From positions 78,864,001 through 78,928,000 of the forward strand of contig OZ320319.1 in NCBI GenBank assembly GCA_976226885.1: a stretch of 64,000 bases of DNA, written 5' to 3'. This document shows positions 9,313 through 48,700 of this stretch, in pieces (position 1 is the first letter of the stretch; each line of letters starts with the position of its first letter). The notes under the pieces were generated by a model. That model was not told the origin of the DNA. It saw only the letters and a list, made by a program, of their open reading frames with translations, and ran no database searches. The stretch comes from Iphione sp. A-MEVVRFRX5 (Eukaryota). The position numbers and the translations under genes are program-made.

Positions 9313-12099
9313 GTCTGACAGGCTGATATCTGAAAGAAAAGCCCAGAAAAGGCTAGTGAAATGACATTGTATAACTTTGTAACATTGTATAATTTCAGAA
9401 AAATATCTATTTTCTGCCCTATTAAAATAATATACCTTCATACATCCAGGGTATTCTCAAAACAACAAAGAAAGTTTATGATTGAATATAACATATTTTA
9501 CCCATGAAACATCAAGAGTGATTTGCCAGATATATATTTATAGCATGGCATTTATTTGTTCTTCTGCCCCTGCATCAATGACATTATGTTTGAAGGTTTA
9601 TTGACATGATTTGTCACAAGTATATTTATACATAGGTATGGAAACAAAATAGTTTTATGTATTACAGAAACTATTCATATGTTTGGAAATGTACTGAGAT
9701 ATTTGCCAAAGTACATATTAACTTTTACACTTACATTGATTATATAGATAGAAAACAGCTTATGGTCTAGAAAACACACAGGAGCACTGAGTTGGTACAC
9801 AGTTGCAGGAAGTATATATCCCTTACTTTCCTAAGTGATGAAAGTATAAGGAAAGAAAAGATATTAATACATGTACTCTGCACATTGGTACTGTATTAAT
9901 GGATATTTAAATCCTACACATGTTCACATTCTCCAAGTGTTGAATGTTAATGCAGTCTAAACATAATCATGATCTTAAACATTTATATGCATGCTAGGTT
10001 TTCTACCAATCAGACCCACATTGAATATTCTTAGGAAGTTACAGCCATAAGTCTTATTCATTAAAAAGGTTAAGGTTTATGCAGCAGAGATATGTAGATC
10101 TATTGAATTTCAATTGAAATATCAGAAACGTGAACCTTTAGTTGTCAAATCTGAATATTAGGTGTCAGTACCTGTGATGTCTTGGTTTGTAGCTGTCCTT
10201 GAACTGAACTTGTTGGTATCATAAGCTTTTCTCTTACCTTAATGGACCCAGCCTATTTTAGGAAAGATAAAAGACAGACCCTACACATGGCCGTATGATA
10301 TATTAGATGAATTACAGTAGTTTAGGAAAGATGACAGGTGATAAAATATAGATATACACACAGTAGCTGAAAAATAGTGACAGCTAAGTAATCCTGAATT
10401 ATTTAAGTAACTAATTAAGGCCATGTACAATAGGTAAGTAAGATGACTAGTATGTTCCTTACCTTGAAATAACAGGACTTAAATCATCAGTGAAGTTGGT
10501 GCTGTATGTTGTACATAACTGTCCACGTAAAGTTTCATTAAGTAGGTCGTTTGATCCATTATCATGCACAGTTCAGTGACATGAATGAAAATGGGTGATA
10601 AATGAAGCAAAACCGGTGAAGATCCACTATGTAAAAATTTTTTTTCACAAAAGCAACTAGTGCATATCAGTGTGGCTGTTCTTTGCAGATGTGTGACGCT
10701 TTTAGTATGTGTAACATCATTCTGGTACAGAGTATATCAATGATATGTCTATGAATTAAGACTTTCCACATAAAATATCTGGTTCACTCCAAAAACAAAA
10801 CATAAAGGCGTATTTACAATCCAGTGTTGTTTTTTTGTTAAAATGTATGGATTATATTCTTGAACATTATACATATTAAATAGTCAGTCCAAGTTGATCA
10901 GAGTTGTGATAATATGAAAGATAAGATGTAGATGAAATACTATGATTATTTTGTGATATTGCACATTATGATATTATTTTTAACCTGACATCCAGTCAAA
11001 CACAGTAGAATTTAGAATTTCTAGCAGAATATAGAATTTCTATTTAGTTTCGCATTTCCTCAGTATGATCAGTCGACTGTTAAAGGCTTTAACCTGGCCA
11101 CCTTGGGGACGCTTCAGTAACTCAATGTCTGTTATAATTACTTAAGGCCTATTCTTGTCCCATCTCCTTGGTATGGTCATGGATAATATCCAGTCCACCA
11201 TAGTCATAGCAGCCCATAGACTTCCTAATTCTGTATAGTCATGGACAATGTCCAGTCTTTCTAAACGTTTTTATTGTAACCGTATATTATCCAGTGTTAT
11301 AAAAAGGTTGATGCAGAAATCTCTTTCCAGAAGCTGGATGACAGAGTGCCAGATCACATACCAGACTAACAGACCAAGGAATTTTGAATCAATCTTGCTA
11401 GATCTCTTTATACCAGATGGGACACAATACTCCATTTATTACATCTTTTCTCTTAGAGAATCAGCTGTGTTGAATAGAATTGTGAACTATGAATATCAAT
11501 ATCGTAATTGCCATTTTTGCATGAAGTATAACCAGACATGTTTTCTCTAGAAATTGTGAATATATCTTCAGTTGTTTTTCTGCAGTGAAAAAAATGTGCA
11601 GGTCAGTGGTCTAAGTGTAGTCAGCGACCCTACTTGGAATGATCAGCAACCTTAATACCTTAATGTAATAAGAATTAAGTTTCATATTTGCACAGTGTGC
11701 ACAAGACTCTCTTCCATTGATATACAAAGTGGCATTTACATTAAAGGTCCTGAGCTTACATAGCTCGGCACAACACTGAAGTCTTTTAGAAATAAATTGT
11801 ATATTTATGAAATAGTACTGTGAAAAAGACATCATATATTATAAGTGATACTTATCACTGCCCTGCACACCTTGCTGTTTTTTTCTCTATTCCATACTGA
11901 CAATTGACGTTGCTTTTGCCTAGGTACATATATGTCTTCATCTATAACTAGTTTGGAATTATACATCCAGGCTTTTTAGAACATAGCTTACATTTCTGGA
12001 CATGGATATGGATGCAGGGATTCACCTCACTTGTTCCTTTCCCAGTTCCAGTTGTATTGGCATGTTTGACTTATTTATCTACTGTTACATGTTTCTTAG

Positions 12100-22779: not shown

Positions 22780-23209
22780 CATGTAAATGGGCCTAGATAT
22801 CGTATTGGTTACATGTGTTTAGAATAGTAAGTGCTATAACCTGTTATTATAAGGAGAAATGTCTGAGAAGTACACTGATATAGTACAGCTGTCCCAATTT
22901 ATATTATATTAGCATGAGACCAGTCACATGGCTGGATAATCATTGTTTGTGCCATGTGATCGATGATGATATGAGGACGGTGATACTTGTAGTTGATTGG
23001 TTATGAGTCAGGAGAAATCACTTAACAGCCATTATCCAGGATAAAAAAGACCTTTTCCTTTTATTACTGTTAACTTTGCTGATTGTATGGATGATTGTGG
23101 CTATAGCGTTCAATTGTGATGTTAGTGCATCTAAGTGTTGTGAGGGCCAGAAATGAACTCATGTGGGGGGGGGGGGTTACACTAGACAGTTTGTGTACGA
23201 TAGAGAGAA

Positions 23210-25969
23210 ATGAAAGGCGTGTGTGTCATGGTGTATAACATTAGAAGTTTAGGGAAGAAGGTATCTCAACTGGAGTGTTTGTTGAAAAAGGAAGACGTGG
23301 ACATTTGCTGTTTAACGGAGACTTGGTTGGGGAAAGATCACTCAGATAGTGAAATAGCTATAAAGGGTTTTAAAATAATCAGGGAAGATAGACCGCATGG
23401 TCAGGGGCGCAGAGGGGGTGGGCTATTGATCTATCATAAGGAAAACTTCCGACTTATAAGATCAGAGGGTTTTAGGGGAACGGAGACAAAGACAGAATTT
23501 CTTAGTGCACGACTGAAAGGAGGGGAAAGAGGCAGTCTGGACATCTTGGTGATATATAGGCCACCAAATGAGAAGGTATCGAGCTCAGCACATGACCTGG
23601 AAGCGGCTCTCAAACAATCAAACTGGCCGGGGAGGAGCAAGAGGCTACTAGTAGGTGACTTCAACTACGATTACTCCAGCATGACGAATGCGAATGGCAG
23701 CTTGGCTACGGTAATTTCCAGCAAAGGTTTCATCCAGATGGTGGATGAGCCAACAATGGTGCTAAGCCGGCATTGTTTAGACCACTGTTGGATAAACTTC
23801 GATGGCCAGCTTTCATGTGCTACGACGGATGCCTTCCTGAGCGATCATCTCCCGGTACTTCTGCGACTTTGTTGCAGAAAACCAAAAATGGTTCAAGTCA
23901 AGAGGCAGAAGCATTGCTGGAGCAGACTGGACCTGCAAGATTTACATGACACCCTAAGAAAGGAGGCCATTGTCATGGATGGTGACCATGAAGAATCATG
24001 GGACCACTTCGAAAACAGACTGCGAGAGGAACTGAATACCAGATGCCCTGTGAAAGAGTACTCCTTTAAGGAATCAGAGGACGGTCTGGAGGTACCGTAT
24101 GGAGTCAGAGAGCTCATTAAGGATCGGGCATATTTCCTAAAAAGATGGAGGAAAACTCGATGCGAAGACAGCAAGCGTATTTTCAAGCATCTAAACCATC
24201 GAGTGAAGCATGCTATGATCAGGCTAAGGAAAGAAAAATGGGAAATATGAGTAAGGGAGGCAGGTAAGAACACCCACAAACTCTGGAATGTACAACATGA
24301 TGCTCTTGGCAACAAGGACACCTCTCTGAACTTACCGGATGAAGAGAAGACAAAAAAGATCACTGGACTGCCTTTAGCTGATGCGCTAAATGCAGCCTTC
24401 GTTGATGAGGTGAATCGGCTGGGTGCTACTTTAGCATCAGTGCCAGGATTCGTTCTGGAGAGGAATTTCACAGGCATGGAGCTTGAAACTCCAAGCCCAA
24501 CTGAAATCCTGCAACTGATCAAGAAACAGAAGTTAACTAAATCATCGGGTCTGGAAGGAATCCCTACAAGGGTGCTGAAACCTCTTCTGGGGATGATTCC
24601 GGATTTTCTAGCATGGCTTTTTCGAATGATATATGAGACAGGCCGGTATCCCAGCTCCTGGAAAAAGGCCAGGGTCACTCCGCTTCATAAGCGAGGAGAC
24701 CCAGATGAGTTAACAAACTATTGCCCTGTCTCTATTTTGCCCTTACAAGGGAAAATATGTGAAGGGTGGTTTGTCCCGGCGATCACAAAGATCCTCAAGT
24801 CCAATGGAGCCTTGCATCATTGCCAACACGGCTTCCGCACGGGAAAAGGAACAGAGAGTGCCATTGCTCAACTGGTTACCAAAGCAATGTGCCTGCTGAA
24901 TGAAGGTGCATACACGTGCCTTCTCACGTTAGACTTCAAGAAGGCATTTGACCTTCTGCCACACGAGAGCGTAGTGAGGAGGTTGGACGAACTAGGCTTG
25001 AGTAGTAGAACACTGAAGATGGTACACTCCTACTTAAGTGGTAGAAAACAGTTCGTGCGATGCGGAGGTAAAGACTCTGAGGAACTGGACCTGGAGCGTG
25101 GAGTGCCACAGGGATCGATTTTTGGTCCCTGTGCCTTTACACTGGTCTTGGACACTTTACCAGATGTCCTACCAGCAGGTACGTGTCCAGTAATGTATGC
25201 GGACGATGTGTCCATACTTGTCTGGTCTGGTGATCTGCTGCGTCTGCGTGGGATATGCCAGAGAGTTCTGTACGCAATTGAAACTTGGTGTCACAGAACA
25301 GGCCTATTGCTGAGCCCGTCAAAATGCAAGCATATGCCACTTGGCAGATCAAGTGGGCTAGACTTGGATCTCACACTAGCTGGTAACAAACTAGGCCTGG
25401 AACAGACAACAAAGCTCTTGGGATTCACAGTGGACAGTAGGTTGAGAATGAAAGACAGCATCAGGGAGGTAATGAGAAAGTCTTGGGTGATCGCCAAGCG
25501 CCTTGGCAGACTTAAAAGGGTGCTCCCCTTTAATGCCTCCTTGACATTTGTCAAGGCCATGATCCTGCCACATTTCAGGTACCAATCAGTGTTGTGGTAC
25601 GAATTGGTGAGCACTGACATTATAAGGCTGCAAATACACCTTAATCGGTGTTGCAGGGTGGCACTACCTTGCAAGGACTATCTTTCGGCTAGTCAGCTAC
25701 ATCGTGTACATGGGGTAGAGAGAATCTCCGATATGGTTGAACACTGTGGCCTAAACACGGTTCACAAGTTGTTCAGGGAAGGCTTATTGCCTTCTGGCCA
25801 ACTCTCCGTGACGAGAGCTGGAAGGGGGAGGCGGGGATCCACTATGAGGCCAAGGTCATTCGCCTTCGCTCGATCTTTGGCCTACAAAGGTGTCAGACGC
25901 TGGAACGCTCTACCTGAACGGGTAAAAGCACTGAATAGGCTACCTAGATCGCTGACTCTGTCAGTATAG
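23210..25969 (+). pseudogene. LINE ORF2p, APE endonuclease + reverse transcriptase (919 codons, one in-frame TGA at 24248)
   Basis: APE motifs YNIRSL, ETWL, YRPP, GDFN, SDHLPV; RT motifs LDFKKAFD, GVPQGSIFGP, YADD; ORFs 23210 and 24410 are in the same frame. Confidence 0.92.
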
Positions 25970-26639: not shown

Positions 26640-27226
26640 AAGAAACCATTCTGATGTTGTAGTTGCGCTATTTACAACTGTTACAAAGAAGTGACCACTT
26701 GGATGTTGTAACTGTAGTTTATTAAACTGTAACTAAGACCGAAATGGACAAAGGCGCTTGATATGGCTGAACAATGAATGTTACTAAAGTTTTGTTTCCT
26801 GATGGTATTCCTGATGATCACTGTGATTTGCTACTTGTGATAAACAAATTGTACTCTAAGCTCTTTCCGACTGTACCTATATATGCACCGTTTGTTATTT
26901 GTTAACACTATTTGTCATGGAGAGCTCTGTAATTGGAGAAGGACAAATAAACAATTCAATTCAATTCAATTCAAAGAATGGTCAAATGTCAAGCCTTTGA
27001 CAATGAAGAAAATCCTACAACTTATTATAATAAATTTATGCATGTATTGACAATGGTATGTGATAAAATGGCACTCATACAAATGATCTCAGTAACATAT
27101 GATAGAACCACCTGGATAGATAATGAAGCAATACAGCATATTAATTTAAACAAATTGTATAACAAAGCTGAAAAGACCAAAAAAGAGGAAGACTGGGAAG
27201 CAGCTAAATGACAGCGGAATATATAG

Positions 27227-27480
27227 TGTTGCGGGGTTCAGTTGATTAGCGGAGTTACTGTTGTCGTTGTTGGTTTGGTGGAGGTGCGGAGGTGCGGAGG
27301 CGCGGAGGACCGCGGAGGGGCGGAGGGATGGTCTATTGTCTATATAAGAGCGGGGTTCGCGGAGGGAAGTTCAGTTGTTGCCTGTACCTTGTTGTTGATG
27401 TTTCTCCTCAGGAATAAAAACTCAAGTCAAATTTGGATCAGTCTGGACGTTTATTATTTCCGCTATGGCTGAAGCTAACA
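27227..27480 (+). repeat. 5' LTR (254 bp)
   Basis: Six substitutions versus the 3' LTR (about 97.6% identity); TATATAA at about 27341, AATAAA at about 27414. Confidence 0.95.
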
Positions 27481-28724
27481 TTGGTGGCAGCGGTGGGATC
27501 CGACGCCGGGCAAAGGGGCCTATCACATCAAGCGCTAGCAGCAAGCCCCCGGCGTCGGACCAGCAGCCTGTGGAGGAGGAAAGTGAAACACGAAGAGTAA
27601 CTAGGAGCAGCAGAGGAGGTTACCTCGACGATGCGGCGGGGAGACAACCGGAACGGCGGGCGGAACGGCCCGCGCGGACCCCTTCTCGTCTGTGGGGCGG
27701 CGGAGAGGGATCGGAAGGGGGCGACCACTCGGACCAGGCCGGAGAGGCGGAGGCGGAGGAAGGAATTCCCTCGCGGGTGCCCCAGGATGCGGTGGTGCCC
27801 GTGGGAGGGTCCACTGCCGTGGACGGAACTGTTCCTGAGGCGGAGTCGGACTCCGACCTTGAGCCTTCAGCTGAAATGGATTTAAGTGAGGAGGAGGAGG
27901 AAATCACCGGAGTGGAGGTAGGTGGCCAACGAAGGGGTAGAGTTAAGCCTGAACCCTTTGATGGCAGCCAAGATTGGGAGGACTACCTCCACCACTTCAG
28001 CCTGGTCGCTATGGCTAACCACTGGGAAGATCAGGAGAAAGCAGTGCAGCTAGGGGTGTGCCTCCGGGGGCCTGCGAGGGCCGCTATGCGCAATGCTCGA
28101 GTGAATGTGAGAGAGAGGGGAGCCTTTCGTCGCCTAACCAGGGTGCTTGCCAATCGTTTCCAGTCCCCCGATCAGGTCGATTTGTTTAAACAGCGTCTGA
28201 AGTCCTACAGGCAGAAAGGGGGTGAAGAGCTCTTCCAACTAGCAGATGAAATCGAGCGATTGGTTAGGAGGGCCTACCCGGGTGTGAAGGGACACTGGGC
28301 GGAGGAACTGTGCCGGGAGAACTTCGTCCAGGCGGTGAGGGATGAAAGAGTTCGGCAGTGGATTGTGCAGAAGAGAGTGGATGGGTTCCGGGCAGCTGTA
28401 TCTGAGGCCGCATTCGCAGAGGCGTACTATCGCAACCGAGAGGAGTGGGAAGGCAAGAAGGGCGGAGGCAGCGGGACTCGTTTGGGCTGCAATGCCGTAA
28501 TGACCACTGAAGGGGGACCCAAGGAGCCCTCCGTGAAGCCTAACCCTACGGAAGAACTTCTACTTAAGCTGGCGGAGAAGATCGAGCAGTTGGAAGGCCG
28601 CTGGAAGACGACGGGAGGGGCCAAGAAAACAGGTTGTTTCCGCTGCGGAAAAGAGGGGCACTTCCGTCGCGATTGCCCGGAGAAGCCGAAGCCGGCGGAA
28701 AACGCCCAGCCGTCCTCCCAGTGA
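27465..28724 (+). CDS. gag: Gag with CCHC zinc knuckle (real start may be downstream, e.g. 27877)
   Basis: KPEPFDGSQDWEDYLHHF capsid-like core; CFRCGKEGHFRRDC knuckle. Confidence 0.9.
   Translation: MAEANIGGSGGIRRRAKGPITSSASSKPPASDQQPVEEESETRRVTRSSRGGYLDDAAGRQPERRAERPARTPSRLWGGGEGSEGGDHSDQAGEAEAEEGIPSRVPQDAVVPVGGSTAVDGTVPEAESDSDLEPSAEMDLSEEEEEITGVEVGGQRRGRVKPEPFDGSQDWEDYLHHFSLVAMANHWEDQEKAVQLGVCLRGPARAAMRNARVNVRERGAFRRLTRVLANRFQSPDQVDLFKQRLKSYRQKGGEELFQLADEIERLVRRAYPGVKGHWAEELCRENFVQAVRDERVRQWIVQKRVDGFRAAVSEAAFAEAYYRNREEWEGKKGGGSGTRLGCNAVMTTEGGPKEPSVKPNPTEELLLKLAEKIEQLEGRWKTTGGAKKTGCFRCGKEGHFRRDCPEKPKPAENAQPSSQ
27482..27499 (+). promoter_or_regulatory. Primer-binding site, tRNA-Leu
   Basis: TGGTGGCAGCGGTGGGAT is complementary to the 3' end of animal tRNA-Leu(AAG/IAG) (...AUCCCACCGCUGCCA-CCA). 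Confidence 0.9.
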
Positions 28725-31700
28725 GGGGAGAGGGAAAGGCGGCGGAGGCGTTCATCCCCAGGATTGCAGTGGCGGAGGAGCGGGTGCCCTACGTCGAGGA
28801 GGAAGTGGAACGTGACGAGGTTAGCGGAGAGCATGATGTCAAGACCGGCGCACTCATGCTGAAGGGAACTGTTAGAGACACAGAATTGACTTGGCTGGTG
28901 GATACTGGGGCCTCCGCCACCATAGTATCAGCCAAAGTGGCGGAGGACCTCGGTCTCACTGTCTCGCCGAAGCCTGGGCAGAAGATCGTGGGAGCGGACG
29001 GGCACCCGCTGCCCTGCCGAGGAGAAGTGGAATTCGAGGTCTCCTTCAAGAAGAGGAAGTGGCCCCTTAAGGCACTAGTAGCGGAGGTCGAATTCGCAGC
29101 CATCCTGGGGATGGACGCTCTCCGCAGATGGGGCGCCGTAGTGGATAACGCACGAGGGGTCATTAAGATGGAGGCAGACAAGATGAGGTCGGCGGCGGTT
29201 AGAGTGGCTCGAGATGTGCAAATCGGCGGAAGAGGGGAGAGCATGATCCCTGTCACCCTGGTAGGAGCAGTGTTCTCGCCGGGAGTGTTGGAACCTGAGG
29301 GAAGATTCGAGGAGGCCACGGGCCTGAGGGTTTCGCGGACTCTGACCCCAGAAGGAATCGCCGAGTTCGAGGTGCCTTGCTGGAACGTCACGGGAAAAGA
29401 GAAGTGGTTGAGGAAAGGAGCTACCGTAGGCCATGTTGAGCCCGCGGAGGAGATGGGGACGGAGAGAGCAGAGGAACCCACCGCAATCGCTGTCGAGGGA
29501 GGAGTCCAAGAACTCATGGCCACCGTTTCTTCGGACTACGCGGAGGGGGAGTTACGATGTCTGCGCGAGGTACTTACCTCGAATGCCCAAGTATTCCAAG
29601 CCTGAGGGGAAGAGATGGGGAGAACCGGACTTGTCCAACACGAAATTCGCACCGGTGAGGCGGAGCCCTTACGTCAGAGATTCAGGAGACTCCCTCCACA
29701 TAAACGGAAGATAGTCGAGGAGGAGGTTAGAAAAATGGTCGACCAAGGGGTACTGGAGCCTTCGAAAAGCCCTTGGGCATCACTGGTGGTGCTTGTGAAA
29801 AAGAAGACGGGTGAGTGGCGTTTCTACATCGACTATCGCCGCTTGAACGAGAAGACACGCAAGGATGCTTACCCTATCCCCCGTATCGACGACACCTTGG
29901 ATGCCCTGGCGGGGGGTAAGTTCTTCTTAGTCATCGATCTAGCGTCCGGGTATTGGCAAGTAGAAGTAAGAGAACAAGATTGAGGACCTGGAGGTCCAAG
30001 TAGGGGCTAGCACGGCACTCACCTGGAGGATTGTATCAGTTCCGAGTAATGCCTTTCGGACTACGTAATGCGCCGTCAACCTTTGAACGGCTGATGGAGG
30101 TGGTCCTCAGTGGGATGGTTGGAGAGGGGTGCCTCGTGTACCTGGACGATGTGATAATGACCGGCAGAACGGTGGAGGAGATGTGTGAGCGGCTCGAGGA
30201 AGTGCTAAGACGACTGGGCGAGGCTGGAATGAAAGTTAAACCGTCTAAGTGCCAACTATTGCGGAGGGAAGTGACTTATCTGAGCCATATCGTCAGAGCG
30301 GAGGGGGTCCGACCAGACCCAGAGAAGATTCGAGTGGTGAGGGAGTGGCCTACCCCAGGGTGCCTCCGCGACTTGTGTAGCTTCTTAGGGCTGGCATCTT
30401 ACTACCGATCATTCATCAAGAACTTTGCGAAGAGGGCGGAGGCCCTGCACCGGCTCCTGGACAAGAAGGCAACCTTCGCATGGGGGGAAGAGCAGCAAGC
30501 AGCTTTTGAGGACCTTCGACAGTGTCTGATCACGGCGCCCATACTAGGTTACCCGGAGGCGGAGGGACAATTGATACTTGACACGGATGCTTCCGCGGAG
30601 GGCCTTGGAGCCGTCCTCTCCCAACAACAAGAAGGCAGGGAACGGGTGCTCGCTTATGCCAGTAGAGCCCTCTCCCGTCCTGAGAAGAAGTACTGTGTGA
30701 CTAGAAAAGAGTTGCTCGCCGTCATCTTTGCGCTTCGCAAGTTCCGAGCCTACGTGGGTGGGCGGAAGATCGTGGTCCGAACGGATCATGGAAGCTTGCG
30801 ATGGCTGATGCGGTTCCGGGAGCCTGAGGGACAGATGGCAAGGTGGCTCGAGGAAATCTACTGCCGTGATGTGGATATTATTCATCACCCGGGACGAATA
30901 CATCAGAATGCGGACACACTATCTCGGAAGCCGTGCAAGCAATGCGGTCGAGTGGAAGGAGACATCCAGGAAGACTCAGAAGTATGTGGGCTCCTGAGCG
31001 TCCAAGTAGGGGCTAGCACGGCACTCAGCCGGGTGGCAGAGGAGACGGCGAAGGACGACCGTCTTCAAGAGGTGGTGCACCAATTGGCCCACGGCGAGGG
31101 TCCCCCCGAGTGGGGAGCGGAGGCTACTTGGGAGCAGAGGAGGCTGCTCATGGAATGGGAGAGGCTGTCAATGCAGCAGGGCCAGATCCTCCGCCGCTGG
31201 TCCGTGGAGGACGGACGGTCCTGGTGGCAGGCTTTCGTCCCCGAATGATTGCGCAGGCCTTGCTGGAGCCTTTGGTGGGCATCTAGGACCGGAGAAGACG
31301 GCGGGGCTCCTTCGGACCAAGTATTTCTGCCCAGGGATGTCACGCGATGTGCAAGTCTGGGGAGGTGGCTGCCGTTCGTGTTTGGAGTGGAGGAGTCCTA
31401 CCTGTCGGCGGCGTACCCGACTACAGCGGAGGCAGCCAGGGGGACCTTGGGAGATGGTGGCTGTAGATGTGCTGGGCCCCTTTCCCGAGACAGCTCGTGG
31501 TGCCAAGTACGTGTTGGTAGCCTCGGACCACTTCACTAAATGGTCCGAGGCTTTCCCCTTGAGTACCTTGACAGCGGAGGACACCGCCGACGTTCTGGTG
31601 AGGGAGTTGGTGTGTCGATTTGGGCCCCCGCGGGTGCTGCATAGTGACCAAGGAAGGAATTTCGAGGCTAAACTGGTCGCGGAGGTGTTGCACCTATGTG

Positions 31701-32300
31701 GAATAGAGAAGACCCGGACCACCCCATACCATCCTCAGGCCGATGGCCAGGTAGAAAGGTTTAATCGAACTCTCCAGCACATGCTCGCTACCTCGGCGGA
31801 GGACAACCAGTCTGACTGGGATCTGCTGCTACCATTCGTAACGGCGGCCTATCGTGCTATGCCTCACAGAACGACCGGATACTCGCCAAACTTCCTGATG
31901 CTTCACCGGGAAACCACCCTCCCCCTTCAGTTGGCCTACGGAGGCCCACCCGCGGAGGGGGACGAGAAAGAGGGAAATGTGTACTCCTACGCAGCTGATC
32001 TGAGGGAGCGAGTTAGGACGGCACACAATCTGACCTATGATCGCATGAATGAGGGGATTGCCCGCCAGACGGACTGGTATAACAAAAAGGTCAGGCACAC
32101 CGACTACCAACCAGGGGATACGGTCTATCTGTTCCACCCATTGAAGAAGAAAGGACTGTCTCCGAAACTGCAGAGGTTCTGGAAGGGACCGTGGGTCATG
32201 AGGGAGGCCCTATCCTCCGCCGTCTATCGAGTGCAAAAAGGGCGACGTGAGAGAGTGGTTCATGCAGACTTACTGAAGCCAGGGAAAGTGTCTACGGCCT
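28634..32300 (+). pseudogene. pol: Pol (protease, RT, RNase H, integrase), -1 frame to gag, disrupted
   Basis: LVDTGAS; YLDD (30139); DTDAS, TDHGSL, NADTLSR; GGHLG...CRSC; DVLGP / SDQGRNF / QVERFN; FWKGPW. Lesions: TGA 29603, TGA plus insertion at 29981, TGA plus frameshift at 31246. Confidence 0.93.
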
Positions 32301-32360
32301 CCGCGGTGAGGGCAGCGAGGAATCCCCCGGCGACAGCGACCGTTAGGCTGGCGAGTTTGA

Positions 32361-32485
32361 GGCGGGAACCCTCAGCCAATCAAAGCTCGGCAGAGGGAAG
32401 CAACCCACACCTCCGCGGGCAGCGAAGTATAAAGATGCCTGCGCCGTTCGAGGGACCTCATAACTCATCTCGACCCGCCAAGATG
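32361..32485 (+). promoter_or_regulatory. Putative internal Pol II promoter for Gypsy ORF3
   Basis: GGCGGG (32361), CCAAT (32376), TATAAA (32428), TCATA Inr-like at about 32458, then GCCAAGATG (ATG 32483). Confidence 0.55.
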
Positions 32486-35361
32486 ACGAAGAAGAAGGAC
32501 CTTGTGTTTAAATGTGATCAATGTACCTACACATGCGACAGAAAAGATAATCTTCAAGGGCATGCCCAGTTGCACGAGGAGGAAGGTTACGCTTGGCCGT
32601 GCCCGTCGACTCGGTGTAAAGAGAAAGTCTTCTCGCGCTGGGAGAACCTCAAGAGGCATTTAGAGATGAGCCAGCACGAGGCGGAGGGTGGAGTAAAGGC
32701 CCTCCTTAAGAAGTCGAAGGAGGGCTACTTCCAGTTCTTCAGAGTGGGGGGTTCGAGTACCCTCAGGGGGCGACCCAGTGAGCCACCGACGAAGAGGGCG
32801 GAGGGGAAGCCAACGGAGGAGAAGGCCGATCGGAGGAAGAAGAAGAAGAAGGGCCAAGCTACTGTGGCACCAGGGGCCGGGGTCAAAGCAGATGAGGAGG
32901 AGGAGGACGGAGGCTCAAGGGAAGAGAGCGAGGAGAGCCCCGAAGGTCGGGCCAAGTCGGTGGCAGCAGCAGCGGCGGCCAAACCTGCCGATAGCGGAAC
33001 GAGCGAGGAGGGCACCGCGGCATCTGAGGCGAGTGACGACGACTGGGAGCCTGAGGCCTCCACCTCGACGGCGGTTTTGCCTCCCCGTAAAAGGAAGGGT
33101 ATGCGGACCCGCGGAGGGACTCCAAGGAGGGCGGCGGCAAGATCTCCCCCGAGGAAGAAACAGACAGCGGCGGAGGTGAAATCGCCAAGATCGCTTTGCA
33201 AAGAGCTACGGGGAACTATCTCCGACCTGCAGTCTCGACACCCCGGTACCCCGGCCAGTTCCCCTGCCACGGTGGCGAGAGTGGTGGAGGCGGCGGAGGC
33301 CCTTGAAAGGGCAATGCTGGGGTCGCCAGCGACGATGGCGGAGGCAGCGGCGAAGGGCAGCCCGGCGGCGAAGAGAAGATTGGGGGCAGCTGAAGGGGGG
33401 CTGGCCCCTAAGCGAGGGCGAGGCCGGGGGCAGGCTCTCTCACCGTTGATCAGCAAGAAGGGAGGGCAGTTGCCCTCCGTTCCCTCACCCTTGTCGGTCG
33501 AACAGAGGACACCGCCGGTCCTGCCTGACCGGGCGGCCACTCCGCGGCTACAAACACCGGAGACGGGAAGCAAACGGGTCGGGCAACTATCGAACTTGTC
33601 TACGCTGAGCTTGCCCCCTACCCCAGCAAGCCTCAGCGATATCATCAAGCGGCTGGAGGAGGAGGGCCCCCGAGCTTCCCCCCAGGATATGGCGACGGTG
33701 GCCGCTACCTTAAGGAACTTGTTTGGAGATACCTTCAAAGTCGCCCCTGTCGAAGGCCCGGTGAGTGCTGCAGTGGGAAGGAAGGAGAGCTCCTCCGAGG
33801 AGGAATTAGCTGATACATTGCCAGCCTCGGGGGAAGAGGAGGAGTATGTACCCTCGGAGAAGGACCGAGCGTCGACAGAATTACAGTACGTAGAGGTCGG
33901 GGGTGTCGTGGAAGTTCATGAGGCCATCACCCCAGCGGGCGCGGAGGAGGGCTCTCGAGACTCCCCACCAGTTCAGCGGCCACCGACGAAGCTACCGCAA
34001 CGGGACCCAAGAAGCATGGCACGAGAGGTCTTGGCGTGGCAGGGAAGGAGGGCTGCCGAGGACGAAATGACCAAGAGCCAGGCAGGGGAGCTCCAACCTC
34101 CGCCGTCGAACCAAGGGGCCAACCGTCGCCGGCGACCGAGACAACGATGGCTACGAGAGCGTTAGTGGCTACTATGAGAACCTCGCCACTACCCAAGGAT
34201 GGCTCCTGTGACCAGGAAGGCCGCTCAGCTGACTCCCCTACCACCACGCCGGGGAGAGCCGAGCCAGCCCCTCCGCCGCTGATAGCAGTGGCCGAACCGG
34301 GTCAGGTAGGACCAAGCGAGGGCGATGAAGAACTCCCTGCATGACCGGAGGGCGGCGAACACGGGGGGCCAGCCAGGCCGGCTTCCCCCCACGACACGGA
34401 GCAAGGGGCCAGGCCGGCCCCTCCGCCGCCGGCATCGCCTGCGAGGCCTGGCCAGGAGAAGGACCGCGGAGAACCTCCCTCACGACCGGGGAAGGGCGAA
34501 CACGGGGGGCCAGCCAGGCCGGCTGCCTCCCACGACACGCAGATAGGGGCCAGGCCGGCCCCTCCGCCACCGACATTGCCTGCCAGACCGAGGCAGGAGG
34601 AGGACAGCAGGGCACTTCCCCTACGACCGGGGGAGGGCGAACACGGGGGGCCAGCTAGGCTGGCTACCCCCCACGACGCGCAGCAAGGGGCCAGGCCGGC
34701 CCCTCCGCCGCCGACATCGCCTGCAAGGCCTGGACAGGAGAAGGACCGCTGAGAACCTCCCTCACGACCGGGGGAGGGCGAACACGGGGGGCCAGCCAGG
34801 CCGGCTGCCCCCCACGACGCGCAGCAAGGGGCCAGGCCGGCCCCTCCACCACTTGCACCAGACCGCGGGCAGCAGACCGAGATCGCGGGCCCTCCTCCAC
34901 GACCGGAGGGGGTTGAGAGCGGGGCGGTGGCCGGGCCAACCCATTCTCAGGACGGCCGGGAACCGTGGAGGAGACGGAGAGAGGCTCTATCCACCGATTC
35001 GGTTCGACGGCCCCGTGAGGGGAGGTTGGACGCAGAAATCTGGTCGCGATGGGCGTCAGCTCGACCGCTGATGGCCGATGTGCCACCTTCGTGCGGCTGG
35101 GAGCTCCGCTCCGCCCGAGGCAGGGGCAGACTTTCCTGACAAGTGCACGGATTAACCATCAGTGTGAGTCACACCTTGAGACTATACAGAGACTCCGTCG
35201 AGGCAGATACCAAAGACATACTGACGTGGTTCCATCGGCAAATGGAACGGCCTGACGAACTGAGTATAGAGGATCACGATCTAGAACTCTATACCAATGA
35301 CGAATTAGCCACTCTTGAGGTGGAAGAGGTATTTTCTGTTGTGTTAGATGATTATGTGTGA
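32483..35361 (+). pseudogene. Gypsy accessory ORF3: two C2H2 fingers, long disordered region, 47-aa Pro-rich repeats, acidic C-terminal domain (about 960 codons reconstructed)
   Basis: CDQC-x12-HAQLH and CPSTRC-x13-HLEMSQH. One inferred frameshift at about 34100-34140; the new frame then runs to 35361 with TGA at 34342, 34750 and 35137. Currently in frame with integrase. Confidence 0.65.
34336..34850 (+). repeat. 141-bp GC-rich tandem repeat, about 3.6 copies (47 codons)
   Basis: The homologous (C/T)GACCGG motif falls at 34342, 34483, 34624 and 34765. Confidence 0.92.
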
Positions 35362-35397
35362 TTTTTCTCGGGACGAGAAAAGTGTTGCGGGGGGCAG

Positions 35398-35651
35398 TGT
35401 TGCGGGGTTCGGTTGATTAGCGGAGTTACTGTTGTCGTTGTTGGTTTGGCGGAGGTGCGGAGGTGCGGAGGCGCGGAGGACCGCGAAGGGGCGGAGGGAT
35501 GGTCTATTGTCTATATAAGAGCGGGGTTCGCGGAGGGAAGTTCAGTTGTTGCCTGTACCTTGTCGTTGATGTTACTCCTCAGGAATAAAAACTCAAGTCA
35601 AATTTGGATCAGTCTGGACGTTTATTATTTCCGCTATGGCCGAAGCTAACA
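35398..35651 (+). repeat. 3' LTR (254 bp)
   Basis: Matches the 5' LTR; preceded by GGGGGGCAG and an 8-bp hairpin (35363-35381). Confidence 0.95.
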
Positions 35652-36909
35652 ATATAGAACATTAATTATAACAAAGAAAAAGTTTTTTTTTCAACAGAGG
35701 TTGCCAGAGAATGCTAAGAACCCATGAATAGTATACAATAATATTAGAGGGAAAGGAATAAATCAAAATTGTGTTAACACATTAGAAGGTGAAAACAATG
35801 TAATACATGAAAAGGCATAAGACATGGCAAATAGAATGAATAGGTTCAGAGATTGGAGTATCAATTGATAGAAATATACCTGATCTGACAAAGGAGATAA
35901 TAAATAATAATGAGAGATAATAGATAATAATGATCACAATTATGACACATATCACTTTACGCAAAGAACATTTGAAATTGTCAAGAAGATTTTATAATCC
36001 CCATATGCAAACAAAGCTACAAATATTGAGGGACTGCCAATGTTTTTAATAAAAAAGCACTCAATTGAATTTTCTACTATACTAAGAAAATTATTCAACA
36101 AGATTACTATCTCAAATTGTATACCTAATTAATTGAAAAAAGCAGCAATAACACCACTTCAAAAGGGAGGTAACATGGAAATGATGGATAGTTATAGACA
36201 AATTTCAGTATTGAATGTTCTACATAAAATTTCTGAAAAGGTATTAAGAAATCAGTTATGTATATTTCTAGAAAAAAACAATGTGCTATATAACAAACAA
36301 GCTGGTTACAGAAATGACATGTCAACATTGGATATTGCTAGTAATGTCTTGGATGAAATCAAAAGGAGTATGAAGAAGGCATTTGATACTGTAGATCACA
36401 AAAAATAATATTGCAAAAATTGAATTATTATAATTTTGTTTAATTTATACATTAATGATCTACCAAAATATTGTACTGAAAGATGTAACATCTGCAAGTT
36501 TGCTGATGACACTATTATGACAAAGATCTAACAATGGCTGTAAACAAAATGAATGAAACAATAATTAAAGTCTCAGACTGGCTAGTATATAACAGACTCG
36601 AACTGAATATGAAGAAAACACAATCTATGGTTCTCTCAAACAAAAGTTAAAATGAATTTGATAATAAACCAAGAGTATTAATGAATGGCACCATTCACTC
36701 TGGAGTACGAATACACAAATACCTTGGATTACGGGTTGATCAAAAACTGACTTTTAAATATCACATTTCTGAAGTAACCAAGAAGAGAAGAAATAGTGGG
36801 TTATGTTTTACAACAGTTGGTAAATACTTCAACAAAGAACAAAGCTGATATTATATAAAACGGTCATTGTACCTCTATCTGACTATATGGATGTTTAATG
36901 GGCTAATAG

Positions 36910-39440
36910 TATATCAAATATTCACAGAGTACAGGTATGTCATAACATTTCTCCATTTACCATAAAAACAATCATTCTGAAACCATCCAGGAAAACCAGA
37001 CAAACTTGCATCTGTGGTGAACACTACACTTAGCTTCATGGCTGTGATTATCTTTTTCTTGCAATTAAACATGTCCATGAATACCAGCCACCACTTCAAG
37101 TCATCTTCCACATGATCTGTCAAGCGCATACACTGATTCCTTCTCCCAAAGACTTGCAACCAACTGTATACACTCCTAGCATAAGTCCTGCCTCCTTTCA
37201 CAACTGATGAGCAATGGGCTAACATAACTGTAAGTTTTTCAATTTCTTTTTTCGGAAAGACACTCTGATCTAACTTCCCCACAATGGGAGATTTACATTT
37301 GCTCATTTTGTCATCCGGCAACTTCAATTCTTTATTAATTTTACAGAATCAACTAAAATTCCTGGGAAGCGGTACTCAATACTTGGTGGGATAAATTTGT
37401 TCCTTGATACTTTAAAACCAAATGTCTCTATTATCTCAATCATTTGATTGTCTAGCCAAAGACATTCCTGATATGTGGTACCAATGACAATAAAATCGTC
37501 CAGGTAGTTTACTACTCGACCACCTGAACGACTTACAAGTTCACATTTTATCAGCTCCGATAACCTTGAAAACAGATATGGCACACATTTCAAACCGAAA
37601 CACAAAGTGTTGTCCATAAAGTATTTTTCTTCACCATCTATCTTTCAACTAAATCCTTGAAAGGTTCTATGACCTGGATACACATAAACACTGGGGTATG
37701 CATTATTAAAATATCAATAACCATCATATACTCATTACTTTCCAACATTTTACCAACGTCATGTACTGAGTTGTAAATGAAAGCCTTGTGTGTTGTTAAC
37801 ATAAAATTATTAATCCCTTTTTTTCTCTGGCATGCAGCAGTCCATTATAGACCTGAGGGATCCATCAGGCTTACTTACTCTGCCTAACACATTACTGCAA
37901 CGAGGTTGGTTGACTACACATGAAATATAACCTGACTCCAGTTCATTCAAAAGTTTTGCTGTCATTTCTGTGGTGAACTTTTCTGTAAAAATAGAGTTAT
38001 AATTGCTACATTTGTACCTAGTTTCATGTTGATCATCAATGATCTTAAAACCTTTACTGACACCAAACCACAACAACTCTTCCTCACATTCTGACAAATC
38101 ACGTAATACAAGGGCTTTGACATCCTACAAGGGAGTAAATCAGTTTTTATATTGCCAACTCTATACTCACAGTCACAAATTACATCTAAACAGTCTTACA
38201 TTGATCGCATTACTACCATCAGCAGATATCAAAGTGCAAATATACTTCTCAATATTGATAGAACTCTTTACAGACACTGAATCAGACAAAGATGAGTTAG
38301 CAAAAATACTGACATCAATACAGTGCCAGTCAATGTCTTTCTCAACATCCAAACCATCAACTCGAGGAAGATGATCCTCACTAACCTGAATGTTGCAGTT
38401 CAACTACTGTTCATCAGAACTGCTAATTTTGTTCAGCAAATGCAAATAAACACAAATTTGTCATGCAATTCAACAACATACATGTCGTCCATCACCGGTT
38501 TCCCTGGTGACGGAGCACACCGTCACTGTTGTTTTGACCAAGCATTTAACGATGTAGTAGCAAGACAGTAATCTTTAATTTACCGTGACAATAATGCTAT
38601 GAAATCGTTAAAAGCAGTTCTAACTATGACAATAAATCATTTTCTAGTTAATGCTGGACATAATTTGTCAATTATTCATCATTTTCAACTTGCATGCAGC
38701 ATGTTTACAAAATCGTCATCTTAAATGTACGCTCTGCACATGTCTGCTCTATTAAAATCTGGGTCGAGCAGCATATTCTGTCTGACATCCTTGCTTTCTT
38801 GCCCTGCTTTCCTCTCAAAACACCTGCCATGGAATCCAATCTCATGTGCTTATGGATGAGTTCCGTGTCCCCATAGCAGAACATGTCCATTCCTTTTCTT
38901 GTTGCCTTCTTGCGCATATCTCTATCAAAGCTAATTAGGGCCTTGTGACTATATACCCTAGTTGATGCCTTAACAACCACAGATCATAAATGGTCAACAT
39001 ATGGCTGGACATTCTTACCTTTCATCATGAGTCGCTTGAGCAGACCTAGTCTGCCTACCATTATCTGCTCGAATGAATCAATCGACTTGCCATCAGTATA
39101 CCTCAAGATGTCCAACTTTCTGTGTTGTCTACCCTGTTTTTTTTGCAGTCTTGTCCCTCTTCTTCTCTGTCTCTTCAATCGTAATGTCAGAATCGGAAAA
39201 CTCTGATGCTTCACTGCTTAAAGAGAGTTCATCATTGTTCACCATCTTTTGCTTGCTTTTCATCTCGTCCTGCTTCACATTTACCAGCTGCTCAATCAAG
39301 CCCTCCGTTTGTGACAGTTTTTATCATAATTGTCTGGAACAGGCTTCTTGTCCAAAGAGGCTTTCAATGGCATCTATCACATTTTCCTCACAGGTGGGGG
39401 ATGATTACGTTTGCAACATCTGCAGTATTTACCCATTTTT
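36910..39440 (-). mobile_element. Decayed DIRS-order (Ngaro-like) retrotransposon: ORF1, RT, RNase H
   Basis: ORF1 start MGKYCRCCKRNHPPP (39436); LGRVSKPDGSLRSIMD; LCFGLKCVPYLF...NYLDDF; FTTDASLSG. No tyrosine recombinase seen (truncated). Confidence 0.7.
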
Positions 39441-44684: not shown

Positions 44685-45704
44685 CTAGAGGTCTTCATAT
44701 GCATAAAAATCATGACACAGTGTGTTCAATATAACAAAAAATGTAACAAGAAGACAACCAATTACTTCTAATATATTTTGTCGCCCACTTAAACCTTCTC
44801 TCACAAAAAAGTATTGCATTATCAGATGTATCATTGGTCCCAAGTTCACAAATGTTGCTGCAACTACTGCAGTTAACAATTGAATGGACATAATGTATGC
44901 TAATAGGCTTACAGCAGAGCTTACACAATGAAGCAAAATGAGAATGATCTGTTTTGAACTTAAGATCAATACTGGTTCTTCAATATATAAGGCTAACATT
45001 ATTGAAGATGGGAGTCCAATAATGGCTGAATAGAATAAAATGAGCATTGATCGTTTATTTTTCAAGGGAAAACTAATGAGAATAACATTAACTGCTTCAG
45101 TTATACCTGCACTAATAGCTACTAAACAACCAAGGATAAAATAGAGAATTTCATACCTGATTTTCAGACGCTGTGGAGAGTCATTAACTATTCTTCCATC
45201 TAATTCAATGATTGTGTTATTTGAAAAAACATTATGACTAAAGGGAATATAACCAATATTGAAATCTATCCAAGGTTGCACAAGTAATATGGTACCTGTG
45301 ATACATCCACAAATTGAAAGGAATGTGACACCTTGAATATGCTGTTCATAAAATATTCTGCAGATTACAGATGTTGCTATCATCAAAGATATGGAGAAAA
45401 TAGAAGATGCAGTGGAAATTGGCATTAGAGACACTACTGCAAAAAACAGCACTGAAAATCCAGCACTTGTAATGCCAACCCCTAGTAGAGGCAAGACATC
45501 CTTTCTTTCTATTCTTATAGATATATTTTTGATCCATAGTACAATGTAACACAGAATGAGTATTGCACAATATCTGTAAGCACTGAGCTGGAAATCTGGT
45601 ATTTTTCTCTCTAGTGCTTGTACTGCAACAGATGAGGAAGCCAGGATGAGTGCACTGAAAATAGCTAATATGGGGCCAATAATGACATTCTTGGTGATTT
45701 TCAT
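44685..45704 (-). CDS. EamA/DMT-superfamily (SLC35G-like) transporter, paralog 2, 339 aa
   Basis: Collinear with paralog 1 (roughly 60-65% identity by eye), same length and C-terminal YEDL; the same TTTTCTTTCAG acceptor lies 15 nt before the ATG. Confidence 0.85.
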   Translation of the reverse strand: MKITKNVIIGPILAIFSALILASSSVAVQALERKIPDFQLSAYRYCAILILCYIVLWIKNISIRIERKDVLPLLGVGITSAGFSVLFFAVVSLMPISTASSIFSISLMIATSVICRIFYEQHIQGVTFLSICGCITGTILLVQPWIDFNIGYIPFSHNVFSNNTIIELDGRIVNDSPQRLKIRYEILYFILGCLVAISAGITEAVNVILISFPLKNKRSMLILFYSAIIGLPSSIMLALYIEEPVLILSSKQIILILLHCVSSAVSLLAYIMSIQLLTAVVAATFVNLGPMIHLIMQYFFVREGLSGRQNILEVIGCLLVTFFVILNTLCHDFYAYEDL

Positions 45705-48700
45705 GTCTGAATAATTTGTCTGAAAGAAAACCCAGAACAGAAAACTAGAAAGTTTGTTTTCAACATCATGAACAAGAAAGAGTCTACAATTGAATATCAT
45801 CCATTTAATGCATTTTAAACATGAAGAGAGAGAATGAATTGACAGAGATATATACTATGACTTTTACTTGCTATTCTAGCCCTGTTTTAAAACAGGGCCA
45901 GAAAATTTTTCTTAAAAAATTGTATAAATGTGCAAATAATTTTACTCTTACCCTCGAAATGCTGATGGAATAGCGATTATTGTCCAAAGACGATGCTGGA
46001 GCAGTGACCTGGTACCTAAGTACAAGAAGTGAATATCCCATATCATACTACAGTCGAAACTCTATTTGTGACCACCATTTGATACCAAGCTCAAATGGTC
46101 ATATTGGGGAATTTTCTTGTAAATAGGTAACAATTCCTACAGAAACTATGATATGTGTTCCCATCTTAAACGGCCAGCAATGGGAAATGGCTGCTAATTG
46201 ATGTGGTGGAAAATTGGGGGCTGGAATGTAAATAAATTAATGTATAAAGAAATCTTAGTTGAGAGATGACTTCATACTAGTACTGTGCACATTAGTACTG
46301 TCCACTCTCCCTATCCATATGTTAATTTTAACTTGTACTTTGATTACAGGTATATTTTATCATTTGTAATAACCACAAAATGCAATATCAATACAAGAGT
46401 AGAACATGTCTTGTCAATATAGATAGCCTTCTAGTACTAAATGTTGGTGCAGATTAAGCCTTATCTGGCCCATCATCATGTCAGCTGGTTATAGTACGTC
46501 ACAGTACACTCTTTTTATGCCAAGGGTCATTAGGGTTTTGGTGACTTTAAATAGTCTTGTCTTCAGTGCTGTAAATTGTACTTGTCTCCTGTGCTTCAAT
46601 ACTTATACAATGAGACAGAGACAATGGCAGAAGCCCAGATCTGGAAACAAACCCAAATACTGAAAGACATTGTGAAAAAGCTCAAGAGGAAACAGCCAAT
46701 AAGACTGAGCATCACCAAGAGGATTAATACAAAGGCAAGCCATAAGGATAATAGAGACAAAGGTGGAGACAAACCAGGATGAATATGAGCACCAACATGA
46801 TATATGTGTAGCGGAGACATGCCATCATCTGCCAGATTCCTCACCATGTGGTGTGAGTATAGGCTAAGAATAGACATTGGGGTTGATTATTATTGAGTAA
46901 TCTGATGTTCAAGTATTGCGTAAGAGTGACCATGTGGTTGCTCCTGTAACTGCTCTGGTAATTTTAAAAGGAGCCACTACAGGAGCAACCAATCAGAAGG
47001 TTGCTGAGTTATTTTTAGCAACAGTCTAGACAGAATGTCAAACATTTACACAAAGATATCTGTGAGCAATGTAAGAATGAAAGACTGAAACACAAAGTTA
47101 ACTGATTATACTGAAAGAGTTGATACAGTCAAAAATAGATTATGTAAGTTGAAATTGACCGATGGTACATGGTGGCTGAGTAAAGTATTGTCTATATACA
47201 AACTATACATGATAAACAATAGTGGGATGTAGATCACAATACATTGCTCTTAATGTAGCTTATCACAGTAACTGGACTATCACAGCCTGGTCTCCAATTT
47301 AAAAAGGTTTTTCTCTCTATATTAAGTGTGTTCCTCTACACTATGGGTTTCTACACATAAGATTACTATTGGATATTTGTATTTACACAGGCTGTAGATA
47401 TGGTTGGAAATAACATCTTTATTATGGACAGTCACTGTAGGGGATTGCAAAAGTTTAAGGATATCTAGGATGGCACAGTACTGTAATATTGTTCCCACAT
47501 GCAAAAAACTTCACAGGTGATGAAAATTACCTGGATATAAATGAACGCCATACTCCAATGGCCACAGTGCTCCTAGCTAGAGGTAAACACACTACAACTC
47601 TACAAAAACATCTCTACAACGCTACGTTACAACTCTAAATGGCGACCACTCTTTCTCGCTGTACTTGTAATGTTCTATTCCATGATATATTATCTATATT
47701 TGAGCTGCTGATGAATAGCATTCAAACTATGACAAGCCTAAACTGTGCTATCATTTTCAAAATTCACACACAAGGAATTATATCATAAAATATTATATGC
47801 TAAACAGCTATACTGAGAGAATATTTCCTTGAGAATACAACCCATCCTTAAAGATAGTCGTTGCAGTTAACCAATAAATATCTCCATACAGAGAAATTGA
47901 TATACTTAGAACCTCAGCATATAGAGCTGGACATTAGATGCTGGAGGAACAGATCATGTAGACTCCAATCCAAGCCTATCCGACCTATAAGCTATGGGGT
48001 TGTGACATTTGCAATTCCCGAATAATCATTGTTTAAACCTCCATGTCTATTGCAAATATAGCTTGGACGGCACCGCTCCGTCGACACAGTAGTTTCACAC
48101 CCTTTACCACAAGATTGTTGTTACTCAGATGATAGTTTGGTCCATCTATGGCTGCACTTGACTAGATAGCCATTAAACACAATCGAATGAAGGGAATTGT
48201 TACTTACAATGTACACAACTTACCAACAAGTGTTTGATCTGCTTTCTCTCTTGCAAAGTGAGTCAGTGGACACGGGTCGTGTAACTGACCGGTTTATGGG
48301 TTTGGGGGTCCAATTCAGGTGGCTGTTGCGGCATGTCCATTAAGAGTACACATATATGTTTATTGCCATTGTGAACCTCTCACTGAGAGCTGTCAATATT
48401 TTTGCACCGTACAATCTTGTGTGTACTATCATTGGATAGCTCTTGTTGAAAACTTTCTGTTGGTGTAGGAATGACTTCTATTATCCTCAATCTGCATGAA
48501 CATAAACATCTAAGATGGGGAATTCCCACTCCCTGGCTGGGAGGGAGCCCCTAGTGACCTCATCACAGTGGGAAATGGCCTACTTTAACGACCGACAGGT
48601 AGGACTGCTGATGTAGTCCTCTTCTAGGGTGGCTAACAAGGGTGGGTAACGGCCCACTGAAATTGCATTGCATAATATAAACAAAGGTGGGCCAGAGGCG

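Follow-up and report, generated by a model that had tools for sequence, protein, structure and literature searches.

A putative C2H2 zinc-finger accessory gene recurs behind the integrase of a Ty3/Gypsy lineage

Introduction

What does the region between the integrase and the 3′ LTR of a decayed Ty3/Gypsy element encode, and from which transcript would it be expressed? The element lies in the 64-kb stretch of DNA analyzed here, which we hereafter refer to as the window. Extra third genes (ORF3s) are already known from Ty3/Gypsy elements of bdelloids, for which the available text of PMC5408684 describes env-like, GDSL esterase, and DEDDy nuclease types. We give roughly even chances to the reading that the gene in the window, which is not env-like, specifies a nuclear protein that binds particular DNA sequences and regulates transcription of the element, with translation from the gene's own ATG on a subgenomic mRNA.

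Results

A full-length but decayed element

The element spans positions 27227-35651 and is full-length but decayed. It has the features of Ty3/Gypsy elements: LTRs with TG...CA ends, a target-site duplication, a primer-binding site, which we take to be of tRNA-Leu type, and a polypurine tract (Table 1). The two 254-bp LTRs mismatch at 6 of 254 positions. Pol is ordered PR-RT-RH-IN with a GPY/F-type C-terminal module, and it matches the Pfam families Asp_protease_2, RVT_1, RT_RNaseH, Integrase_H2C2, rve, and Integrase_p58_C. This copy is dead, because pol holds two stops (29603 and 29981) and two frame changes (near 29984-30030 and 31246-31285). The GC content of the element is 56-70%, compared to 30-45% for the surrounding sequence, and it lies amid LINE and other repeats, a setting that suggests an animal host.

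Table 1. Features of the element and its accessory gene, in window coordinates
Feature	Position	Strand	Remarks
Left target-site duplication ATATAG	27221..27226	.	same hexamer at 35652-35657
5′ LTR	27227..27480	+	TG...CA ends; TATAWA 27341; TCAGT with A at 27373
gag	27465..28724	+	start within LTR; Retrotrans_gag weak; CCHC knuckle
Primer-binding site	27482..27499	+	
pol (protease, RT, RNase H, integrase)	28700..32482	+	
Integrase C-terminal tail	32291..32482	+	in frame with finger gene; terminal R..R.IK.P motif as at relatives' integrase ends
CCAAT box AGCCAATCA	32374..32382	+	CCAAT at 32376; sole RRCCAATSR on the element's + strand
TATAAA	32428..32433	+	no other TATAWA within the 7.9 kb between the LTRs; TCA follows at 32 nt, spaced as in the LTR
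AG-free stretch	32453..32482	+	30 nt, AAG right at ATG; Inr-like site and/or weak splice acceptor
Accessory gene, segment 1	32483..34165	+	560 codons counted from the ATG; holds both fingers and the disordered basic and acidic tracts
C2H2 finger 1	32507..32575	+	helix RKDNLQG; best solved matches are Helios/Ikaros fingers
C2H2 finger 2	32594..32677	+	CPxxxC type with helix RWENLKR; solved matches include WT1/EGR1 chains
RRKKKKK, NLS-like	32831..32851	+	motif match only
Accessory gene, segment 2	34072..35361	+	different frame; TGA at 34342, 34750, 35137
141-bp tandem repeat	34329..34847	+	3.7 copies, 85% matches
Acidic C-terminal 73 codons	35140..35361	+	end 36 nt short of the 3′ LTR
Polypurine-tract region	35362..35397	+	
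3′ LTR	35398..35651	+	

The accessory gene and its reading frame

The initial annotation read about 2.9 kb behind integrase as one reconstructable frame. In the present sequence, the roughly 960 codons downstream of integrase fall into two frame segments with three stops, all TGA. The integrase frame runs uninterrupted from 31010 to 34165, across the ATG at 32483 and both fingers, and the best-scoring frame switches between about 33950 and 34165. We trained a codon model on the element's own gag and pol and scored 21 intervals along the accessory region; the segment-1 frame wins in 11 of 11 intervals starting at 32300-33800, and the segment-2 frame in 10 of 10 starting at 33950-35300. As the model picks exactly these two frames in 21 of 21 intervals, it is reasonable to suppose that the roughly 960 codons once formed a single frame.

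A tandem repeat is present where 47-aa Pro-rich repeats had been annotated, with a period of 141 bp. Single-base differences between the repeat copies gave no signal of purifying selection for the Pro-rich frame (17 synonymous versus 41 non-synonymous; another frame gives 30 versus 34), and the Pro-rich reading thus lacks support from selection.

Anatomy of the predicted protein

The two annotated N-terminal C2H2 fingers were recovered by Pfam zf-C2H2 with an E value of 3e-5 over two stretches, at 24.6 bits, slightly below the 25.2 cut-off. The Cys2-His2 spacing is present, and a structure model shows two hairpin-and-helix units at a mean pLDDT of only 59. The best solved PDB matches are the DNA-binding fingers of Ikaros/Helios, CTCF, WT1, and EGR1. 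The finger helices carry Arg, an acidic residue, Asn, and Arg at what we take to be the base-reading positions. GAGNAG, the site predicted from the finger helices, is not enriched in the LTR, with 0-1 matches.

The basic NLS-like and acidic tracts that had been described are also present; besides RRKKKKK there are further basic tracts, including Arg-rich ones. The acidic C-terminal domain reported just before the polypurine tract corresponds to the last 73 codons. Its predicted fold is not confident (pLDDT 52), and it had no Pfam or word-index match and no convincing Atlas match, the Atlas returning weak unnamed ones. Beyond zf-C2H2 in segment 1, Pfam detected no domain in either segment, and hence no GDSL, DEDDy, TatD, or JmjC catalytic domain. 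The protein is poor in hydrophobic residues, and a hydropathy scan found no transmembrane helix (highest 19-residue values 0.8 and 0.69), and we therefore reject an env-like ORF3, which would have a signal peptide and a transmembrane helix, in agreement with the initial annotation.

Finger genes behind integrase in relatives

We queried with the integrase end and fingers of the window copy using phmmer and examined 150 listed proteins. C2H2 fingers follow integrase in the same chain in 5 of these 150 integrase relatives, one of them (P0070) a Mytilus gene model; a sixth regular-expression match proved to be an EGF-type domain, not C2H2. In P0003, the third best match, a finger pair follows integrase and is 30% identical to that of the window over 53 aa (pairwise E 4e-6), with finger 2 of the window resembling finger 2 of P0003.

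We also collected Gypsy loci from contigs of metagenome-assembled records, many titled as lucinid-clam symbionts, and took them by inference to be host DNA. Among the 48 loci with an integrase C-terminal end and at least 1 kb downstream, we searched ORFs within 2.6 kb. A C2H2-like motif occurs in a plus-strand ORF at 13 of 48 loci and on the minus strand at 4 of 48. The 13 positives comprise 8 N-terminal finger genes, 4 TatD-type genes, and one seemingly spurious match (L090). L139, L129, and L006, missed by or outside this census, also carry finger genes. Host breadth is thin, as a single genome record supplies 9 of the 12 accepted loci. Other cargo in relatives includes SGNH-like (read by eye, with no Pfam match), env-like, and macro genes, and many relatives have no cargo. 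From these comparisons, a third gene after integrase appears to recur across the Gypsy lineage of the window.

An integrase tree retained 44 of 76 rows after long-branch, redundant, and outgroup rows were dropped. In it, the window, P0003, P0005, and P0078 form a clade with 97/97 support; the P0005 and P0078 proteins end without fingers. Finger-bearing and finger-less elements interleave within a 97/89 clade, and because backbone support is weak, the tree does not demonstrate a single origin of the finger genes.

The finger genes have a common layout of fingers, a disordered acidic/Pro/Ser region, and a short C-terminal domain. C-terminal sequence is shared by sister pairs only (L085/L093, p 0.003 against shuffles). 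The C-terminus of the window protein, compared with those of 10 relatives, beat shuffles in no case (p 0.3-0.9); a likeness to L105 that we saw by eye failed this comparison (p 0.83). Therefore, beyond the fingers, layout is shared and not sequence, and these genes are perhaps not one gene family.

By word-index search, the first 100 aa of the window protein had 0 direct homologs among 38 candidates, and its C-terminal 142 aa, with X at the stop, had 0 among 901. A three-sequence finger profile recovered only the families of its own input sequences (P0003, P0152, and P0155-P0158) plus generic multi-finger proteins, and no closer kin of the window. An Atlas search with the fingers gave generic C2H2 clusters only, and viral contigs and phages gave no useful match.

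The two word-index results, together with repeats that bear no purifying signature, would fit a one-off captured host fragment or a non-coding 3′ region that is open by chance. We consider this very improbable. The codon model favors the gene's frame throughout, P0003 and other lineages have a finger pair in the corresponding position, and the fingers show constraint where families can be compared. P0152 and the P0155-type family share 87-89% of integrase residues, 67-76% of finger residues, and 45-50% of linker residues; identity is 39-49% for the acidic part and 48-59% over the last 60 aa. The higher identity of the fingers than of the linker shows that the fingers are constrained in this family. 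The initial annotation had named lack of conservation, or a one-off capture, as outcomes that would count against it; recurrence and finger constraint were found instead, and for the fingers one-off capture is largely refuted.

The link to integrase

The in-frame connection to integrase, which the initial annotation offered as an alternative to a separate gene, is real. A stop-free integrase-finger link is found in the window and in P0003, its nearest finger-bearing relative, as well as in L082, P0097, P0099, P0048, and L105/P0152; in the last, P0152 is an open 1800-aa PR-RT-RH-IN-finger frame. In the P0155 cluster, 7 of the 15 listed members (of 25) are stop-free from integrase into the fingers, and 2 of the 15 end in the linker. 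The in-frame link is thus a family trait in the P0155-type family, and since the window copy shares it with P0003 and other families, it is not an artifact of decay there. The retention of a stop-free link in several families is unexplained by a pure separate-gene model.

Chromoviruses carry a chromodomain on integrase. The fingers might correspondingly be a C-terminal integrase module that directs integration by holding on to a DNA sequence or a chromatin protein, in the place that the chromodomain has in chromoviruses, where the reader module is likewise in frame at the integrase C-terminus. The stop-free links point this way, as do other relatives with a PHD finger on integrase, read by eye (L099, L106, L107, and L116, which have TatD genes behind it). 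We nevertheless give this reading a modest minority chance. Finger genes are in frame with integrase at L082 and L105 and are separated from it by a stop at seven loci (L085, L093, L096, L098, L101, L103, and L139); therefore the finger gene can work unfused. A Met is kept before the fingers, the P0155 cluster includes the two members that end in the linker, and a disordered tail of 900 aa does not look like part of a compact targeting module. The element also differs from chromoviruses: Pfam found no chromodomain at its integrase C-terminus or elsewhere in it, so we reject a chromodomain-type integrase, and its integrase is just 25-31% identical to those of chromodomain-type loci.

Start codons, splice acceptors, and a candidate internal promoter

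Each of the 7 fused proteins listed has a Met shortly before finger 1, and so do the separate ORFs; in 6 of the 7, this Met closely follows the R..R/K.P motif at the end of integrase. A splice acceptor (pyrimidine tract plus YAG) lies 1-16 nt before the ORF3 ATG in 15 of 17 relatives. The count is 9 of 11 among finger-type relatives, and among other ATGs it is 74 of 1437 (background 5%); we drew up the rule with the sequences already in view and chose the ORF3 ATGs by eye, and the excess is nonetheless very large. Although L082 is fused to integrase, a strong acceptor lies 10 nt upstream of its Met, which also argues against a purely integrase-bound role. Given the constant Met ahead of the fingers and the acceptor in 15 of 17 relatives, a spliced subgenomic mRNA is the likely default for the finger gene in this lineage.

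These data do not bear out the gene's own promoter, as initially proposed, for the lineage at large. TATAWA occurs within 160 nt upstream in 1 of 17 relatives, and the CCAAT/TATA set is absent from all relatives compared and present only in the window. The window copy itself fails the acceptor rule applied to relatives, and its AAG-ended stretch occupies the position where relatives have a strong acceptor. Its leader contains no strong splice donor, the best being at 27918, within gag, and neither the window nor L082, L085, or L092, relatives whose primer-binding site was plausibly caught by our pattern, has a conserved donor near the primer-binding site.

The promoter motifs that had been described were found in order in the window copy (CCAAT 32376, TATAAA 32428, TCA 32458-60, ATG 32483), except that the annotated GC box is uninformative, as the element has 18 such hexamers. 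The TATA-to-TCA spacing is 32 nt at both the LTR and the internal site. When we recoded the integrase-tail peptide at the element's codon usage, both boxes arose in 0.43% of 100,000 draws, a post hoc p of about 0.004. Against a promoter, TATAAA falls on Ser-Ile-Lys codons within the integrase-end motif that relatives conserve. An octamer common to the LTR and the internal promoter is ordinary, as 23 of 33 control windows share one. For the window's family alone, a putative internal promoter is a fair reading of these motifs.

RNA export and anti-silencing as alternative roles

A splicing element needs a route for its unspliced RNA, and acceptors are present in the 15 relatives noted above. The accessory protein could accordingly be a CERV/Rev-like factor that binds element RNA and acts in export of unspliced genomic RNA or in splicing control. 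The described case is CERV of Cer1 in C. elegans, made from a spliced mRNA, which the available text of PMC10309623 presents as a nuclear accessory protein, distinct from env, that an animal Ty3/Gypsy element encodes in the env position, with an acceptor before its ATG and partly in the frame of the polyprotein. By that description, CERV differs in having H/M/G domains, a C4-type loop, exons shared with gag, a role in RNA export, and no C2H2 pair (PMC10309623). Weak Pfam matches of L082 to zf-met and zf-C2H2_jaz, and the Arg-rich tracts of the window protein, lean toward RNA; the fingers of the window, however, match those of DNA-binding transcription factors, and splicing is no indicator of an export function, given that the same acceptor also lies ahead of genes of the TatD and SGNH-like types. 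We judge an RNA role quite unlikely.

PLDLS/PLDLR, which we take to be a CtBP-type motif, occurs in L093 and L101, and SIM-like strings occur in L105, P0155, and P0097, for 5 of 13 relatives scanned. Together with the fast divergence outside the fingers, this would suit a protein that, instead of serving as a simple activator, counters host silencing by recruiting or sequestering SUMO, CtBP, or HP1-pathway factors at element copies. That role appears improbable to us, since the window protein matched neither type of motif, short motifs arise by chance, and the protein has no enzyme domain.

Discussion

We favor a nuclear DNA-binding regulator. The initial proposal of a regulator-type accessory gene agrees with our comparisons, by which the gene appears to be family-borne, conserved, and equipped with a start codon of its own, and its product to be built like such a regulator. 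We hypothesize that a short mRNA is made, which relatives would produce through splicing from the 5′ LTR. For the window copy, it is an even call whether this mRNA would start from the internal CCAAT/TATA promoter in the integrase tail; use of the weak AAG acceptor is possible but less probable, and we think it quite unlikely that none is made. The basic tract would import the protein into the nucleus, the finger pair would read DNA, and the disordered acidic parts may recruit host cofactors, by analogy to foamy-virus Tas. Because no stop separates integrase and the finger gene, some fingers would additionally be produced as a fusion to Pol, in amounts as low as those of Pol itself.

To our knowledge, Tas has no C2H2 fingers. 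It belongs to the Retroviridae, which have env, and its likeness to the window gene would be one of function. As a model of how such a gene might work, Tas/Bel-1 is nonetheless apt: in the available text of PMC4929722, it is an accessory gene before the 3′ LTR with an internal promoter, and its product, with an N-terminal DNA-binding domain and a C-terminal activation domain, acts on the LTR and the internal promoter. We regard it as unlikely, and offer it as speculation, that the lineage is "complex" in the retroviral sense, with its own C2H2 trans-regulator, which most families would express from a spliced mRNA and the window's family from an internal promoter of foamy-virus type that has newly arisen within the integrase tail; with fingers also on integrase, one DNA-reading module might then serve both transcription control and target choice.

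Other known accessory genes share the position. Like that of the window, the ORF3s of invertebrates in the available text of PMC5408684 are sense third genes between pol and the 3′ LTR, in a slot with exchangeable cargo, to which our relatives add TatD, SGNH-like, env-like, and macro genes. Those ORF3s are enzymes or membrane proteins, whereas the window gene has C2H2 fingers plus disorder, a type often in frame with integrase. Maize Grande gene23 and other plant aORFs also lie between pol and the 3′ LTR, with their own promoter and a nuclear product, but they belong to the Tat/Retand lineage and are antisense, and no C2H2 fingers are reported in the available text (PMC7264820).

A full-text search of freely accessible papers turned up no description of a C2H2 ORF3 among animal Gypsy elements. 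The term "zinc" is absent from a mollusc survey (PMC6238403) and two annelid surveys (PMC8556966, PMC8220671), and the terms "Gypsy" and "integrase" are absent from PMC10547256. The available text of PMC2774666 and PMC6431247 names no such gene, and that of PMC6338049 names chromodomain, exonuclease, and helicase only. Extra Gypsy ORF3s are thus already known; the C2H2-finger type in animal Gypsy elements is seemingly new, and a prior mention in Repbase, a subscription journal, or a supplement may exist.

C2H2 fingers are a tool of the host against retroelements, and here retroelements themselves carry them. Annotators are liable to mistake such ORFs for zinc-finger genes of the host. With its conserved acceptor and exchangeable cargo (fingers, TatD, SGNH-like), the site downstream of integrase offers a testable model for the acquisition of env-like and accessory genes. 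Should the protein read DNA, invertebrate LTR retrotransposons would have a sequence-specific regulator that they encode themselves, in a role familiar from complex retroviruses, and the forms fused to integrase would be candidates for directing integration to particular sequences.

Cargo genes around the integrase in related elements

Four related Gypsy loci (L099, L106, L107 and L116), whose integrase carries a PHD finger, have a separate gene behind the integrase, with a splice acceptor upstream. The product of this gene combines a TatD DNase domain, matched in L116 at Pfam E 9e-35, with a C2H2-like finger. A literature search found no paper on the combination of Gypsy, TatD and PHD.

Other relatives carry different domains or genes around the integrase. 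In L001 and L008, the integrase stop directly abuts an SGNH/GDSL-like ORF that has a splice acceptor 3 nt 5′ of its ATG; the L001 ORF had no Pfam match. A macro domain follows the integrase in two related proteins, P0124 and P0138 (Pfam E 0.0014), and the env-like protein of L127 shares a reading frame with the integrase. In P0078, a close relative of the window's integrase, residues about 40-185, upstream of the integrase, form what we take, by appearance, to be a NADAR/YbiA-like domain.

Many of the prokaryotic species-representative records (genome_contigs) behind L082-L159 hold whole animal-type Gypsy elements, which are likely host contamination.

Coordinates of features in related loci and in the window
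Feature	Position	Strand	Remark
Gypsy element with PHD finger on integrase, then separate TatD-type gene	L099:2851-6130		
As above	L106:8260-11440		
As above	L107:9461-11924		
As above	L116:9241-11263		
SGNH/GDSL-like ORF	L001:1858-2572		by eye
SGNH/GDSL-like ORF	L008:950-1667		by eye
Env-like protein with hydrophobic segments, after integrase	L127:1095-2896		
As above	L128:4257-8353		
TTTGAGGCGGGAA	window 32356-32368		just upstream of CCAAT box
Two related ORFs, about 388 aa	window 8293-9456 and 44685-45854 (- strand)		
LINE (endonuclease + RT)	window 23204-25969	+	neighbour of the element
Decayed LINE	window 36000-36850	+	
Decayed DIRS-like RT/RNase H region	window 36914-38124	-	

Structure of the window element

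The 5′ LTR contains the gag ATG, and the gag frame reads through the PBS (27465-27499). Within the gag/pol overlap (28700-28724) lies a GGAAAAC heptamer, which is likely a site of -1 frameshifting. At a break in pol, a 40-nt piece of the RNase H-integrase linker is duplicated inside RT (29987-30026 and 30993-31032), which suggests a template switch.

TTTGAGGCGGGAA resembles an E2F site; the element contains a single copy of GGCGGGAA. Where the PPT meets the 3′ LTR, AGTGTTGCGGGG is present in two consecutive copies (35383-35407). Since the AG of the 6-bp flank repeat ATATAG is also part of this motif, the true target-site duplication may be 4 bp (ATAT).

Neighboring repeats

The two ~388-aa ORFs, 79-84% identical in DNA, are probably a transposase pair. 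The Gypsy element itself is inserted into or beside the decayed LINE.
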